Positions 15,236 to 21,229 are shown, counted from the stretch's first letter. The stretch: DNA of 64,000 nucleotides from SAR86 cluster bacterium (GCA_023703615.1 CP097971.1:1134224-1198223), one strand, 5' to 3'. The notes: generated from the letters alone by a model not told the origin. A program made the numbers and translations.

Positions 15236-15727
15236 ATGGTCAAAGATTCAAATTATCGTTTAAATGTTGGAATAATTATTGTTAATGATAATGGCAAATT
15301 GCTTTTATGCAAAAGAAGTAATTCAAATAATTGGCAATTCCCTCAAGGAGGAATTGATTTTGGAGAAAAACCTTTGAATGCTGCAATTCGTGAAACATTC
15401 GAAGAAGTTGGTATTAAGTCAAATTGTATAGAAATGATTGCAGAAACTAATAATTGGTATAAATACGATGTGCCAATAAATAAAAGAAAAAAAAATTTTT
15501 TACAAAAAAAATTTTTAGGTCAAAAACAAAAATGGTTTTTATTTAAATTAATAAAAAATTGTAAAGTATCTTTTGCTAATGATCCTGCGAATGAATTTGA
15601 GGAACATAAGTGGGTTTCATATTGGCATCCTATTACCAAAATAGTTTCTTTCAAAAAAGATGTTTACAGAAATGCACTTCTAGAATTCAAAGAAACATAT
15701 TCAAATATGTTCTCGAATAAAAATTAA
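15236..15727 (+). CDS. rppH: RNA pyrophosphohydrolase RppH
   Basis: YRLNVGIII, WQFPQGGID, Nudix box AAIRETFEEVG, GQKQKWFL, EFE...WVSYW, FKKDVY. Confidence 0.93.
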   Translation: MVKDSNYRLNVGIIIVNDNGKLLLCKRSNSNNWQFPQGGIDFGEKPLNAAIRETFEEVGIKSNCIEMIAETNNWYKYDVPINKRKKNFLQKKFLGQKQKWFLFKLIKNCKVSFANDPANEFEEHKWVSYWHPITKIVSFKKDVYRNALLEFKETYSNMFSNKN

Positions 15728-15738
15728 AATATGGAATT

Positions 15739-16530
15739 ATGATTGAGGAATTTTTTACATACGGAGTGCTAGGAATATTTGCTGGTCTGATTGCAGGCAT
15801 GTTTGGTATTGGTGGAGGTCTAATTATTGTTCCAATTCTTATTGCATCATTTATCGGTTCAAATTTTGATGGTGAGATAATTGTTCATTTAGCAATTGGC
15901 ACTTCAATGGCAACAATCGTATTTACTGGCCTTGCATCAGCATATACTCATTATAAAAATAAAGCGGTTGTAAATTCCTATTTTAAATTTATAAGTTATG
16001 GGATTGTTTTTGGCGCTTTAACAGGAGCTTTATTTACTGTTCAAATTCCTGGTGAGTATGTTAAAAAATTTATTGGGATTCTTATAGGTCTAATTGTCAT
16101 CCAGATTTTTTTTGATTTAAAATTTAGGTTAACTAACAATGGTCCAAGCCAAAGGCTATTAGTTTTATCTGGTTCAGGAATTGGATTTTTATCATCAATA
16201 TTAGGTATAGGAGGAGGACTTTTTACTGTACCCTATTTAAAAAATATTGGATTAAGCCTTAAAAAAAGTATTGGAACATCCTCTGCATGTGGAATTCCTA
16301 TAGCAATATTTGGATCTTTAGGATATGTAATCCTTGGTCTTAATGAAGCCAAACTTCCAATGCTTAGTTTTGGTTATACATATTTACCAGCTGTAGTTGG
16401 TATATCCATAACAAGTGTATTCTCAGCTAGAATTGGCGGAAATTTAGCGCATTTTTTCTCAACAAATACTTTGCGAAACCTTATGTGTATACTATTAATT
16501 TGTATAGCTTTTTACATGTTTTCAATATGA
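15739..16530 (+). CDS. TauE/SafE sulfite exporter family membrane protein
   Basis: AGMFGIGGGLIIVP, AIGTSMA, SSILGIGGG..TVP; lies upstream of lgt. Confidence 0.9.
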   Translation: MIEEFFTYGVLGIFAGLIAGMFGIGGGLIIVPILIASFIGSNFDGEIIVHLAIGTSMATIVFTGLASAYTHYKNKAVVNSYFKFISYGIVFGALTGALFTVQIPGEYVKKFIGILIGLIVIQIFFDLKFRLTNNGPSQRLLVLSGSGIGFLSSILGIGGGLFTVPYLKNIGLSLKKSIGTSSACGIPIAIFGSLGYVILGLNEAKLPMLSFGYTYLPAVVGISITSVFSARIGGNLAHFFSTNTLRNLMCILLICIAFYMFSI

Positions 16531-17324
16531 TTATAGAACTTTCTAATTTTTTTAATAATCCAAGCATTATCAAAATAGGTTCCTTCAGCATCCAATACTA
16601 TGCTGTAACTTGGGCTTTATCTGCTTTCTTTATTTTGATTTTTTTACAGAGAAGCAGAATTATTTCTGAGCTACATATAAATAAAGAAAAAGTTAGTGAT
16701 ATGGTAATTTTTTATGGTCTTTTTTTAGGTGCAATATGTGGTGGAAGGATAGGTTATATGTTTGTTTATGGTTTAGATCAATTATTAGCAAACCCTTTAT
16801 CGATGTTTTTTGTATGGCAAGGTGGTTTAAGTTTTCATGGAGGATTGCTTGGTGTCGTTATTAGTCTTTTTTATTTTTCAAAAAAAAATCATATCAGCTT
16901 TTTGCGACTTTTGGATGCTGTTGCAGTTGCAATGCCTATTGGTCTTGGTTTAGTTAGAATTGGGAATTTTTTAAATGGGGAGCTTTATGGCAGGCCTACG
17001 AATGGTGAATGGGGTTTTGTTTTTCCGACAGACCCTTATGGGCTTCTAAGACATCCATCACAATTGTATGAAAGTTTTGGAGAGGGAATTATTTTATTTT
17101 TAATCTTATATTTCATAAGCATTTATTCAAAAACAATTGGAGTTATAAGCTCATCATTCCTGATATTCTATGGGGTTATAAGATTTGCAATTGAATATTT
17201 TAGACAACCTGATTCACATCTAGGATATGTAGCTTTTGATTCGCTTAGTATGGGTCAAATCTTATGCATTCCTATGATAATAATCGGTATAATTATGTTC
17301 ATATTTTCTAGGAAAAAAACATGA
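16527..17324 (+). CDS. lgt: Prolipoprotein diacylglyceryl transferase
   Basis: GGRIGY, WQGGLSFHGG, RIGNF.NGELYGR, RHPSQLYE, RF.IEYFRQPD. Start set at ATG 16527 (ATGA overlap with upstream stop). Confidence 0.95.
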   Translation: MIIELSNFFNNPSIIKIGSFSIQYYAVTWALSAFFILIFLQRSRIISELHINKEKVSDMVIFYGLFLGAICGGRIGYMFVYGLDQLLANPLSMFFVWQGGLSFHGGLLGVVISLFYFSKKNHISFLRLLDAVAVAMPIGLGLVRIGNFLNGELYGRPTNGEWGFVFPTDPYGLLRHPSQLYESFGEGIILFLILYFISIYSKTIGVISSSFLIFYGVIRFAIEYFRQPDSHLGYVAFDSLSMGQILCIPMIIIGIIMFIFSRKKT

Positions 17325-18184
17325 AGGCATATCTAGATCTTTTAAGGCATATTATTGAAAATGGTGAAACAAAAGATGACAGAACTAATACAGGAACAAT
17401 ATCTTCATTCGGACATCAACTAACTTTTGATCTTTCAAATGGCTTTCCAGCTGTTACGACAAAATCTCTTGCATGGAAGGGAGTTGTTTCAGAGCTTTTA
17501 TGGTTTCTTGAGGGATCAGGAGATGAAAGAAGACTGGCAGAGATTAGGTATTGTAAAAATAGAGAGGAAATCAAAGATCTTTCAAAATATTCAACTATAT
17601 GGACAGACAATGCAGAAAATCAGGGAAAAGATTTAGGTTATATAAATAATGATGTTAAAAAGGAATTAGGTCCAGTTTATGGAGTCCAATGGCGCGATTG
17701 GAACGGAATTGATCAAATTAAAGACCTTATACATAACTTAAAAAATAACCCTAATGGAAGAAGACATATTTTATCTGCGTGGAATGTAAGTGAAATAGAG
17801 AAGATGGCTCTACCCCCATGTCATGTAATGAGCCAATATTATGTTCATGAGGGTGAAATAAGTTGTCATATGTATCAGAGGAGTGCCGATATGTTTCTTG
17901 GTGTTCCTTTTAATATTGCAAGTTATGCCCTTCTATTATCAATATTTGCTGAAATATTAGATCTTAAGCCTAAAAAATTCGTTCACTCTTTTGGGGATGC
18001 TCATATTTATTTAAATTCTATTGATCAGGTAAAAGAACAACTTGATAGAAAGCCTAAAAAACTACCAAAATTAATTTTACCTAAACTAAAATGTATTAGT
18101 GATCTTAAAGAATATACAGTTAATGACTTTATACTTGAAAATTATGATCATCATCCTGCAATTAAAGCAAAAATGGCAATCTAA
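17321..18184 (+). CDS. thyA: Thymidylate synthase (ThyA), T4-like sequence type
   Basis: DRTNTGT, ELLWFL, LGPVYGVQWR, MALPPCH, YQRSADMFLGVPFNIASY, GDAHIY. Confidence 0.96.
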   Translation: MKAYLDLLRHIIENGETKDDRTNTGTISSFGHQLTFDLSNGFPAVTTKSLAWKGVVSELLWFLEGSGDERRLAEIRYCKNREEIKDLSKYSTIWTDNAENQGKDLGYINNDVKKELGPVYGVQWRDWNGIDQIKDLIHNLKNNPNGRRHILSAWNVSEIEKMALPPCHVMSQYYVHEGEISCHMYQRSADMFLGVPFNIASYALLLSIFAEILDLKPKKFVHSFGDAHIYLNSIDQVKEQLDRKPKKLPKLILPKLKCISDLKEYTVNDFILENYDHHPAIKAKMAI

Positions 18185-18691
18185 ATGATAATTTCTCATG
18201 TAGTTGCAATGTCTAATAATAATGTTATCGGGGTCGATAATGATTTGCCTTGGAATTTGAAAAAAGATCTTGAGCATTTTAAAAAATATACTCTCAATAA
18301 AGTTATTGTGATGGGAAGAAGAACATATGATTCAATCGGAAGGCCGCTTCCAAATAGACAAAACTATATTGTCTCAAATACTCTAAAACATATTCCAAAT
18401 GCACAAATATTTACGAATATAAACTTAGCTATCAAAGCTGCAGAAGAATACAATTTAGAAAATGATTTAGAAAATGAGATAGTTATTATAGGCGGTGGTT
18501 TTTTATTTAGAGATACTTTGGACTATTTTAATAAACTCATATTAACACGCGTAGATTGTGAAATAGAAAATGGAGAGGTATTTTATCCAGAATTTGATCT
18601 TAAGAATTGGAAAAAAACTCAGAGTGAAAGTTATTTAAAAGATGCTGACAATGATTTCGATTTTAAAGTTGAGGAATATGTAAAACTATGA
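18185..18691 (+). CDS. folA: Dihydrofolate reductase
   Basis: VIG..NDLPWNL..DL.HFK, IVMGRRTYDSIGRPLPNR.N, IIGGG. Confidence 0.95.
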   Translation: MIISHVVAMSNNNVIGVDNDLPWNLKKDLEHFKKYTLNKVIVMGRRTYDSIGRPLPNRQNYIVSNTLKHIPNAQIFTNINLAIKAAEEYNLENDLENEIVIIGGGFLFRDTLDYFNKLILTRVDCEIENGEVFYPEFDLKNWKKTQSESYLKDADNDFDFKVEEYVKL

Positions 18692-20119
18692 GGAGTTTTG
18701 AATGTAATCTCTTCTCAATGCTAAATTTTTAACTCTTATTTCTTCGTTCTCTGTATATTTCAACCAATTATTTGCCGTTCCTTTAATTTTCTTGTCTTTG
18801 TCTCTGGCTGCTATTCTAAATTGTTTTCTTGCTTCATCGAATTCTTGAAGTTCAAAATATGCTTGACCAAGAGTCAAGTATACTTGAGATAGTTTTTTGC
18901 CTTCTATCTTACCCTTTTTTAAACCTAATTTTATTGCTGTTACAGCATCATCAATTCTATCTTCTGATAAGTATAAATTCCCCAATAAAACATATGGTTC
19001 TCCATCTTTCGCCAACTTTGCAGCTCTCTCTAAGACAGGTATGGCTTCATTAATCTCTTGTGCCATTCTCCATGCATCTGCAAGAAGTCTTAGATTTTTT
19101 TCAGTATCTTTTACAACAGGAACTATTTTTTCTTCTTTTGTCTTTTCATCTACTATCGTAATTTTTTTATTCTGACCTGATACCAAAACTTTAGCTGCCC
19201 AATAAGGATTTTCATTTAGAAGTAATAATTGCGTTAATGCTAAATATTCGGATTCTTTGTTCAAAAAATCTTTTGCATGTGCAGCTTTTAAAGTAATCAT
19301 ATAATCTCTTTCTCGATTTAATCTAGCGTATGACCCACCAAGTTGAATAAAGTAAAGTTTTTTTGGGTATAGATTTACAAGAATCTCATAAATATCAACT
19401 TGCCTTAGTAGAGAATCTTTCTCTCCTATTTCAGCTTTTAATTCTTCAATATTTGCTGCTAGCAATACATACCAATTTTCTTTAGGTTTATAGCCCTCAA
19501 CTTCTTCAGCAAGCTGTATTGCTTTTTCGATAGCAGACATAGATTTTTTATGATCTTCTAACTGAAAATAAGCTTGTCCTAAAATACCCCAAGATTGTGC
19601 AGTAACTGTTTCAACTTCAGACATCCAATCTAAAATAAATTCTACACCTTTCCTATAGTTTCCTTGAACCATATAAAGCTGACCCATTGTTAATAATGCT
19701 TGCACTCTTATTGGAATAGTAACTTCTGGCTCAGAAATTGTTTTCTCATATGCTTGAATTGCTTGATCATATTTTTCATCTGAAAAATATACGTAACCCC
19801 AAGCATTCCACATGACAGATCTATCGTAACTTTTTAAATTTGCTGAATCATTTCTTAGCTCAGTAAGAATATTGGTAACTGTTTCCATATCTGGATCAAG
19901 ATCACCTACATCATTTACTCTTTCGAGAGCTTCATATACTTTTGCCATTTTTTTTGCTGTAGACGATTGTAATGCCCTTGCTTTTCTGTATTTAATTTCT
20001 TTTTTTGGTTTTTCAGATGCTTCTTGAGCCTGAATATTCGACGCAACAAATAAGAAAGAGCCACTAAAAATAATTAGTGAAAAAAAGATATAAATAAATT
20101 GATTCTTTAAATTAATCAT
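18686..20119 (-). CDS. TPR-repeat periplasmic protein of the TonB operon (TtpD-like)
   Basis: Signal peptide (..QAQEA), multiple TPR-like helices; last gene of the ttp-exb-tonB operon. Confidence 0.8.
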   Translation of the reverse strand: MINLKNQFIYIFFSLIIFSGSFLFVASNIQAQEASEKPKKEIKYRKARALQSSTAKKMAKVYEALERVNDVGDLDPDMETVTNILTELRNDSANLKSYDRSVMWNAWGYVYFSDEKYDQAIQAYEKTISEPEVTIPIRVQALLTMGQLYMVQGNYRKGVEFILDWMSEVETVTAQSWGILGQAYFQLEDHKKSMSAIEKAIQLAEEVEGYKPKENWYVLLAANIEELKAEIGEKDSLLRQVDIYEILVNLYPKKLYFIQLGGSYARLNRERDYMITLKAAHAKDFLNKESEYLALTQLLLLNENPYWAAKVLVSGQNKKITIVDEKTKEEKIVPVVKDTEKNLRLLADAWRMAQEINEAIPVLERAAKLAKDGEPYVLLGNLYLSEDRIDDAVTAIKLGLKKGKIEGKKLSQVYLTLGQAYFELQEFDEARKQFRIAARDKDKKIKGTANNWLKYTENEEIRVKNLALRRDYIQNSS

Positions 20120-20814
20120 ACATCTTGCTCCATAATATAAGTAAATCTATGAAGAACGCCTTGGACTGGTGTTGCTTTACCATCAACTATTTTTGGTTTG
20201 TATTTAAGTTTTAATGCTGCCCTTGCTGATGAACTATTAAATATGGTACATGGTCTATACTCAGTATCTGGATTCGTTGGATCTCCACACCATCCTTCTA
20301 ATGGTTCAACATCTTCAACAGTTCCGGTCTCTGTAATTGTGAATTGAACTATCGCGTAACCTTGCGTTCCTCTTTCCTGAGCCCTTCTCGGATATACTGG
20401 CTGTACTTTAAATAAAGGAATATATTCACCGTCCCTAAAAAAACTACCTCCAGCTTTGAAATTTGCTTTAGGTTTTGCAATATTAACGTCTATCCCAGCC
20501 AGAGGTTGAAGATCTAACTCTGGTTGTGCAATATCTTCTGGTTGTTCCTCAGGCTTATCAGGCTTATCAACTTCTGTAAGAAACGTATCTATTTCTCTCT
20601 CTGGCATTACTACATCAGCTAGTTTTACAGAACTATCCTCTTTCATACCACTATCACCAAGAGCAATTAATATAACCATTATTGAAAATAATCCAAATGT
20701 GATTAAAACAGAAAAACCTATGCCAGCAGCAATTTTATTTGCATTAAAAGCTCTTATATATAGATCTTTAATAGGCCTAATGATTGAGTTTAAAATTGAA
20801 AGGGCTTGATCCAT
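20116..20814 (-). CDS. tonB: Energy transducer TonB
   Basis: N-terminal TM, Pro/Glu/Lys-rich linker (PDKPDKPEEQPE), C-terminal domain P.YPRRAQ.RG.QG...VQFTI...G.V. Confidence 0.9.
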   Translation of the reverse strand: MDQALSILNSIIRPIKDLYIRAFNANKIAAGIGFSVLITFGLFSIMVILIALGDSGMKEDSSVKLADVVMPEREIDTFLTEVDKPDKPEEQPEDIAQPELDLQPLAGIDVNIAKPKANFKAGGSFFRDGEYIPLFKVQPVYPRRAQERGTQGYAIVQFTITETGTVEDVEPLEGWCGDPTNPDTEYRPCTIFNSSSARAALKLKYKPKIVDGKATPVQGVLHRFTYIMEQDV

Positions 20815-20818
20815 AATT

Positions 20819-21229
20819 CTATTTTGGTTCAGATGCTAATGATATTGCGTTGACTCCTGCTTCTCTTGCACCATCCATTACTTTAATTATAGTATCAGCC
20901 ATTGCCTTTTCATCAGCCTGTATTACAACTGAGCCTTGCGGATTGTCTGCTAAAAGTTTAACGACATTTGCTTTAACTTGTCTAACATCTATTCTTCTGC
21001 CGTCCATCCAAACCTCACCAGTGGGACCAACAGCAACTAATATTGCAGCATTTTCTTGGGTTTCTGCAGTTTCAGAATCTGGTCTATTAATTTCAAGGCC
21101 TGGTTCTTTGATAAAGTTTGCAGTAACAATAAAAAATATGAGCATTATGAATACTACATCTAACATAGGTGTTAAATTAATTTCACTTTCTTCATCTTTT
21201 ACAGCTGATGAAATTGCATTTCTTCTCAT
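20819..21229 (-). CDS. exbD: Biopolymer transport ExbD
   Basis: INLTPMLDVVFIMLIFFIVT, VIQAD, VMD..REAG. Confidence 0.93.
   Translation of the reverse strand: MRRNAISSAVKDEESEINLTPMLDVVFIMLIFFIVTANFIKEPGLEINRPDSETAETQENAAILVAVGPTGEVWMDGRRIDVRQVKANVVKLLADNPQGSVVIQADEKAMADTIIKVMDGAREAGVNAISLASEPK

Follow-up and report, generated by a model that had tools for sequence, protein, structure and literature searches.

The thyA Locus

The DNA analyzed here (the window) is a stretch of 64,000 nucleotides from a SAR86 cluster bacterium (GCA_023703615.1 CP097971.1:1134224-1198223), and the gene of interest is its thyA, which encodes a thymidylate synthase (TS) and lies between lgt and folA. Positions are counted from the first nucleotide of the window. 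The open reading frame (ORF) is intact and specifies a full-length ThyA that scores 332.9 bits against TIGR03284 (cut-off 108.35), 342.4 bits against NF002497 (cut-off 327) and 335 bits against PF00303. Its motifs include GFPAVTTKSLAWK (residues 41-53) and STIWTDNAENQGKDLGYINNDVKKELGPVYG, and ELLWFLEG is followed by additional residues. A first-pass annotation of the window had singled out these strings, together with an insertion after ELLWFL, and all of them are present in the ORF. It had argued that the host thyA was replaced in place by a T4-phage-type gene derived from a myophage.

The genes rppH, tauE, lgt, thyA and folA share one strand and are tightly coupled (Table 1). The tauE stop codon and the likely lgt start overlap as ATGA (16527-16530), the TGA stop of lgt overlaps the ATG of thyA in a second ATGA, and folA opens directly after the thyA stop (TAAATG). 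The long lgt ORF begins with a GTG at 16485, within tauE, and the TIGR00544 match extends from residue 24; the true start is probably the ATG at 16527. An NCBIfam profile search gave no match for the TauE-like protein, whose name is that of the first-pass annotation. The same annotation described the order rppH-tauE-lgt-thyA as ordinary and free of phage genes. This description is borne out: the rppH neighborhood is likewise present in other SAR86 families and in E. coli, and the genes read on both sides of thyA are housekeeping genes with no phage genes among them. GC content is ~0.31-0.34 across the locus with no step at thyA, and a scan of 15-19 kb for promoters and terminators was uninformative, with counts at the level of shuffled sequence.

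Table 1. Genes and segments around thyA, with positions in the window.
Feature	Position	Strand	Evidence
rppH (RNA pyrophosphohydrolase), native upstream neighbor	15236..15727	+	NF001937, 164.9 bits (cut-off 139)
TauE/SafE-like membrane protein (permease), native	15739..16530	+	ORF; homologue 5' of lgt in 4/4 SAR86 families
lgt (prolipoprotein diacylglyceryl transferase), native left flank	16527..17324	+	TIGR00544, 213.7 bits
thyA, long-form phage-type thymidylate synthase, 287 amino acids, probable displaced-in xenologue	17321..18184	+	Profiles, alignments, trees
Small-domain segment, thyA residues 66-115, SGDERRLAEIRYCKNREEIKDLSKYSTIWTDNAENQGKDLGYINNDVKKE	17516..17665	+	Alignment; both phage-type inserts, plus an addition of 3 residues specific to the family
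folA (dihydrofolate reductase), native right flank	18185..18691	+	NF008037, 127 bits (below equivalog cut-off 168)
Tetratricopeptide repeat (TPR) protein, TonB-like and ExbD genes, downstream slot boundary	18686..21229	-	Same order after folA in 4/4 SAR86 families

A Conserved Slot with Two Types of Occupant

We surveyed 154 genomes of the order, which include the family of the window (f1) and three sister families (f2, f3 and f4). About 73 genomes of f1, from 10 genera, have a match, and all of these are ThyA proteins of 287 or 288 amino acids with 66-80% identity to that of the window. The closest relatives (65-80% identity) all reside in SAR86 assemblies, on contigs of up to 1.19 Mb. The three sister families have canonical ThyA of 262-264 amino acids. 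Among 300 other gammaproteobacteria (~265 genera), nearly all have a protein of 264 amino acids and none exceeds 57% identity to the query. The arrangement tauE-lgt-thyA-folA, followed by TPR-tonB-exbD on the opposite strand, is kept in all four SAR86 families, and it is a canonical thyA that fills the same slot between lgt and folA in f2-f4. This setting is common more widely, as thyA is adjoined by lgt in 24 of 30 sampled gammaproteobacterial loci and by folA in 25 of the 30.

Because the long form is found in every f1 genome, it is a family-level trait and neither a recent event nor an assembly artefact. The swap is thus old and family-wide, and not an event of this one genome.

Two minor observations concern the survey itself. 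Two genera of f2 have ThyA of ~300 amino acids with an insert unlike the phage-type one; these proteins (L171 from G034 and L175 from G121), and one from another gammaproteobacterium (L197 from G289), are otherwise canonical ThyA with an insert of ~36 residues, beginning WPFQNWLEETNQ, at the small-domain site. In addition, one f1 genome (G105, genus g5) has two thyA copies of the f1 type, on contigs C22 and C55, with 77% and 76% identity to the query. Mixing of strains in the bin is a likelier cause than a true duplication.

Phage-Type Inserts and Signatures

Two inserts in the small domain set the f1 protein apart from canonical, E. coli-type ThyA, in which an alignment shows both to be absent. 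The first, GSxDERRLAEIxxxxxRxEIxD...K, follows ELLWFLEG, and the second, AxNQGxxLGYxNNxxxK, precedes LGPVYG. In both sequence and position these inserts are common to the td genes of uncultured marine phage contigs in IMG/VR, to the Sinorhizobium phages phiM9 and phiN3, to Marinimicrobia and to HTCC2255, and T4 td has shorter, related versions of both. The segment also contains a 3-residue addition (LSKYS) that is specific to f1.

Phage-type states are seen outside the small domain as well. The canonical WPxxDG loop near residue 128 is missing, the C-terminal loop is two residues longer than in canonical ThyA, and the C-terminus reads K-A-K-M-A-I in place of the canonical K-A-P-V-A-I. There are 18 diagnostic positions, each invariant within the phage-like group and within the canonical group but different between the two. 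Of these, 14 show the phage state in f1, 1 shows the canonical state and 3 have some other residue. Apart from its own 3-residue addition, the indel pattern of f1 is that of one phage contig (L092).

Identity values follow the same direction. Outside f1, the highest identities to the query (55-61%) are those of td from the IMG/VR contigs, followed by phiM9 and phiN3 (53-54%), T5-like phages (51%) and T4-like phages (46-49%). The ThyA proteins of f2-f4 are 44-50% identical over the whole protein (BLASTP). When a search was made of solved structures, the best match was T4 td (1TIS) with 281 bits, narrowly above the chains of E. coli type (260-269 bits). A specifically T4 origin was considered and dropped: the best match among cultured phages is at 54% (Sinorhizobium phage phiM9), above the values for T4-like phages.

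Trees of ThyA and of Its Neighbors

A ThyA tree of 88 sequences was computed under LG+C20 with posterior mean site frequencies (PMSF). For full IQ-TREE searches on 88 taxa, the best checkpoint trees were used. All f2-f4 proteins, E. coli and all other gammaproteobacteria form a canonical clade (support 100/99), within which f2-f4 fall in an almost wholly gammaproteobacterial clade (96/94). The f1 proteins form a clade of their own (100/99) that lies outside the canonical one, among the long-form groups, and not with gammaproteobacterial ThyA as vertical descent of the gene would predict. Monophyly of SAR86 ThyA is rejected with the full alignment, both under LG+C20 PMSF (difference in log likelihood, dlnL, 164; approximately unbiased test, p-AU, 1.7e-6) and in an independent run under LG+F+G4 (dlnL 166, p-AU 0.0026). 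Moreover, the maximum-likelihood (ML) trees of every partition place f1 beside phage and other long-form sequences.

The flanking genes have a different history. In the Lgt tree, f1-f4 stand on one side of a branch opposite 23 other gammaproteobacteria (SH-like approximate likelihood ratio test, SH-aLRT, 83). In the FolA tree, f1 and f4 form a clade (support 100), and all SAR86 FolA lie in the cellular part of the tree, separated from phage Frd by a long branch (97). Since both trees fit SAR86 ancestry and the ThyA tree does not, the flanks are both native, and the foreign DNA extends no further than the thyA ORF. The branching inside f1 is the same in the ThyA and Lgt trees (a basal L183, with L184 paired to L185), which fits vertical descent since the swap.

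Probable Replacement of thyA in the Common Ancestor of f1

We conclude that the f1 gene is probably a xenologue, wherein the canonical thyA was replaced in place by a long-form thyA in the common ancestor of the family. The data show directly that the gene differs in type, that its slot is conserved between vertically inherited flanks, that the event is old and that, as described below, the active site is intact. That the whole gene was replaced, and not part of it, is likely. The claim of an in-place replacement stands, as judged by the occupant of the slot in f2-f4, while the myophage named as its donor is plausible but unproven.

The label "T4-phage-type" is too narrow. The gene is of a phage type defined by its long form, but its identity to T4-like phages is low, it lacks the T4 C-terminal insert, and T4, T4-like and T5-like phages, with Klebsiella phage RCIP0006, form a separate clade (100/99) from which f1 is excluded. 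The term should be loosened to "long-form phage-type".

In the proposed scenario, the canonical thyA between lgt and folA would have been exchanged, ORF for ORF, for a long-form gene of a kind otherwise known mainly from large tailed phages, the nearest kin being those of uncultured marine phages with T4-like replication genes and, in some of them, a T4-type major capsid protein (Gp23). The new gene would since have been inherited vertically and would have taken on the composition of its host in full. The absence of mobile-element scars and the host-like composition are both in line with a swap that preceded the radiation of the 10 genera. Since phage td is preceded by frd and lacks lgt and folA flanks in the host order, homologous exchange guided by the flanks is unlikely. 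Crossovers may instead have occurred inside the conserved ends of thyA. Alternatively, two copies may have coexisted for a time, after which the native one was lost and compaction followed.

Several observations weigh against a replacement by a phage gene. The best phage match is only ~61% identical, and the locus keeps no phage genes, integrase or repeats. The ThyA tree does not fix the sister group of f1, and the long-form lineages include cells (Marinimicrobia, HTCC2255, SAR11-like alphaproteobacteria and members of the candidate phyla radiation (CPR) and DPANN). The topology tests also weaken when less of the protein is used. In a core-only alignment of 221 columns, from which the two inserts and the variable C-terminal loop were removed, SAR86 monophyly is marginally rejected under LG+F+G4 (dlnL 110-129, p-AU 0.044-0.045). 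Under LG+C20+F+G4 it is rejected against one constrained tree (dlnL 115, p-AU 0.008), but it is not rejected with the best constrained tree (dlnL 46.7, p-AU 0.21). In a quick search of this alignment, the constrained tree even scored above a free tree that had been searched too little; the order was reversed by thorough searches, but significance was still not reached under C20. When residues 116-287 are taken alone, monophyly is not rejected (dlnL 35 and 18, p-AU 0.16 and 0.31, under LG+F+G4 and LG+C20+F+G4, respectively), and the site likelihoods at residues 116-150 and 268-287 lean slightly toward it.

These points bear differently on the explanations that compete with ours. The one that survives best concerns only the donor. 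Within the replacement scenario, the long-form gene could have come from a cell, for example a marine alphaproteobacterium or a member of the Marinimicrobia. The tree leaves room for this, as f1 stands in a polytomy with four long-form groups: IMG/VR phages with Marinimicrobia and HTCC2255; SAR11-like alphaproteobacteria with CPR/DPANN; phiM9/phiN3; and the T4-like and T5-like phages. Because cellular lineages share this polytomy, donor and direction are not established. However, the cells concerned carry the whole frd-td cassette in the phage order, with a phage-type FolA, and thus look like recipients too, and it is on phage contigs such as L092 that the top identities and the exact indel pattern are found. 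A cellular donor therefore seems possible but on the unlikely side, and, given that transfer occurred, we lean toward a phage as the direct source.

The mosaic alternative holds that a phage-type allele converted only the 5' third of the gene (~codons 40-116, comprising the small domain with its flanks) and that the catalytic two-thirds is native to SAR86. Fixed diagnostic substitutions are indeed almost all in residues 1-115, and the partition tests and site likelihoods for the C-terminal part, given above, would suit this explanation. Nevertheless, residues 151-246 add 98 log-likelihood units to the separate placement of f1, the signal is spread along the gene, and the ML tree of residues 116-287 still sets f1 next to the IMG/VR phage sequences. 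The conserved catalytic core appears to hold little substitution signal, yet the indels there, and the motif at its end, are of phage type (no WPxxDG loop, a loop longer by two residues, and the K-M-A ending). Phage-like signatures that reach the last residues favor replacement of the whole gene, and we consider a mosaic improbable.

Vertical inheritance would make the f1 gene a fast-evolving native thyA whose inserts converged on those of phage enzymes. The fully native slot and composition, and the core-only test under the C20 mixture, would be in keeping with this. Convergence would have to account for inserts that are alike in sequence and not just in position (GSxDERRLAEI... and QGxxLGYxNNxxxK), and for several independent indels and signatures that are all of phage type. 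Even in the insert-free core, ThyA of f2-f4 is 61-69% identical to that of E. coli and only 54-61% identical to that of f1. Together with the rejection of monophyly by the full alignment and the placement of f1 with the long-form group in every partition, this makes vertical inheritance highly improbable. Weaker still is the reverse polarity, in which the long form was ancestral in SAR86 and f2-f4 re-acquired a canonical thyA: the ThyA tree is unrooted and our analysis gives no branching order of the four families, but f2-f4 ThyA, like Lgt, falls inside a mostly gammaproteobacterial clade, the pairing of f1 with f4 in FolA would require the slot to have regained a canonical thyA two or more times, and nearly all of the 300 sampled gammaproteobacteria are canonical, so that we give this scenario hardly any credence.

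Phages and Cells with Long-Form ThyA

On the two top phage contigs, td is surrounded by genes for a clamp loader, thymidine kinase (tk), frd-td, phoH, virion proteins and endolysin or other lysis functions. Of the 32 IMG/VR contigs searched, 5 have a Gp23 major capsid protein with a score exceeding the family cut-off. The number is low because most of the contigs are fragments representing 10-35% of a genome, and the result is no proof that every contig is from a T4-like myovirus. The CheckV completeness of the contigs implies genomes of ~350 kb. The phages with the closest td genes appear to constitute a group of marine T4-like phages of very large size. Among the contigs that underlie L091-L170, the one for L152 is 357,559 bases long with a CheckV completeness of 100%, and it and a few others encode a Gp23 of T4 type.

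Long-form ThyA with folA directly upstream, the phage frd-td order, was seen in Marinimicrobia (L033 and L034), in the alphaproteobacterium HTCC2255 (L036) and in alphaproteobacteria that are SAR11-like or of the Pelagibacteraceae (L039-L057). The FolA proteins of these three groups fall inside the phage Frd clade (97). These cells appear to hold a whole frd-td cassette of phage type, whereas in SAR86 f1 only thyA is foreign.

Function of the f1 Enzyme

The f1 protein appears to be a working enzyme. We checked the catalytic cysteine of the PPCH motif and residues that bind dUMP or folate (E. coli numbering), and R21, E58, W80, Y94, R126, R127, C146, H147, Q165, R166, S167, D169, N177, H207 and Y209 are all kept in the query. 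The catalytic and binding residues are also conserved in eight of eight f1 representatives. The only changed active-site residue is at the position of E. coli W83, which is Asn in the query, as in T4 td. The 1.23-Mb SAR86 genome, a single contig, has just one PF00303 match, and no ThyX was found anywhere in it; this gene is thus its sole TS. Assembled contigs from seawater metatranscriptomes, a kind of library in which DNA carry-over is possible, cover thyA and both the lgt/thyA and thyA/folA junctions at ≥99% identity.

From its status as sole TS, its conservation in 10 genera and this RNA coverage, we infer that f1 ThyA makes deoxythymidine monophosphate (dTMP). The expected reaction would convert deoxyuridine monophosphate (dUMP) and 5,10-methylene-tetrahydrofolate to dTMP and dihydrofolate (DHF). 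The adjacent native FolA would recycle this DHF, such that the functional pairing of the two enzymes would be preserved. Co-transcription and translational coupling of the gene with both of its neighbors, lgt upstream and folA downstream, are also likely.

Comparison with Known Systems

The T4 enzyme (PDB 1TIS) matches the query over its full length. The two share the GFPAVTTK-LAWK motif, inserts at the same two small-domain sites, the absence of the WPxxDG loop, the K-M-A C-terminus and the Asn noted above. They differ in that identity is ~49%, the T4 inserts are shorter and of different sequence, and the T4 C-terminal insert of ~20 residues (the GLPYKFRYLSTKEQLKYVLKLRP region) is missing from the query. 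The T4 strings given in the first-pass annotation agree with the 1TIS alignment (GFPAVTTKKLAWK and TVWDENYENQAKDLGYHSGELGPIYG), and those it gave for E. coli-type ThyA match thyA of NC_000913. In T4-like, T5-like and the other phage records that we read, frd is upstream of td; here lgt is upstream and a native folA downstream. The group I intron of T4 td has no counterpart in the uninterrupted ORF of the query.

The likeness is greater to td of the IMG/VR contigs (for example, L092-L094 and L097) and of phiM9/phiN3, with which the query shares its length class, a long insert 1 of the ERRLAEI type, the QGxxLGYxNN insert 2 and the C-terminal loop. The features of long-form ThyA are all found in the query, including both inserts (GSxDERRLAEI...K and A/DxQGxxLGYxNNxxxK), the missing WPxxDG loop, the longer C-terminal loop and a K/E-M-A ending. 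Unlike the f1 gene, these td genes are borne by phages, with a phage-type frd before them and replication, virion and lysis genes around them, and they lack the LSKYS addition. E. coli ThyA (b2827, 264 amino acids) resembles the f1 protein in its fold, chemistry, active-site residues and lgt-thyA neighborhood. Unlike it, the E. coli protein has no small-domain inserts, retains the WPxxDG loop and ends in P-V-A, and the 100/99 branch of the canonical clade separates the two.

Bacillus subtilis retains two thyA genes. As in SAR86 f1, there is a ThyA related to phage enzymes on a bacterial chromosome (ThyA2, encoded by B. subtilis thyA), but f1 has lost the native copy, and the incoming gene lies exactly where that copy was. 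A further parallel is in situ displacement, reportedly described by Omelchenko and colleagues in Genome Biology in 2003, wherein a gene of an operon is replaced by a distant homologue and its flanks are inherited vertically. The SAR86 case is alike in that an ordinary orthologue occupies the slot in sister lineages and the flanks, Lgt and FolA, are vertical. It is unlike those cases in its source pool, which is dominated by phages, in concerning the only TS, an essential enzyme, of a streamlined genome of 1.2 Mb, and in being fixed throughout a family. Lateral transfer of thy genes in general has been found to be extensive and proposed to be driven by viruses, with B. subtilis and its phages phi3T and beta22 as an example (Stern et al. 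2010, PMC2826268). The model used in that study did not count xenologous displacements (PMC2826268).

Implications

Our literature searches on SAR86 and thymidylate synthase found no description of this SAR86 case. Phage-linked transfer of thy genes and displacement within operons are both already known, and SAR86 f1 is a new and unusually well-controlled example. The single essential TS of a very abundant marine family with streamlined genomes is an enzyme of phage type, placed with the precision of one ORF in a coupled string of genes and kept through the radiation of the whole family. The sister families preserve the state of the slot before displacement, and both flanks serve as vertical controls, which makes the locus a natural example of displacement with good controls.

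A more tentative idea, to which we assign little weight, is that phage-type genes for thymidylate synthesis were fixed independently in several of the most abundant streamlined lineages of the ocean, in SAR86 f1 (thyA only) and, as the frd-td cassette, in Pelagibacteraceae-like alphaproteobacteria, Marinimicrobia and HTCC2255, which would imply a selective advantage. If true, the phage enzyme would have been favored in streamlined cells and would not owe its presence to neutral drift after a chance transfer. For example, the enzyme might keep dTMP synthesis running when phages shut off that of the host, or it might work better when substrate is scarce.

The long-form thyA can serve as a family-level genomic marker for SAR86 f1. 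It also affects the reading of environmental data: when long-form thyA or td reads turn up in marine viromes or metagenomes, similarity alone does not suffice to tell whether they belong to a virus or a host.

Long-form ThyA was also seen on two short contigs binned as archaea, one of 1,751 bases from a Poseidoniales archaeon (L035) and one of 12 kb from Methanosarcinales (L038). These could be mis-binned viral fragments, and they are not to be taken as archaeal genes without further context.

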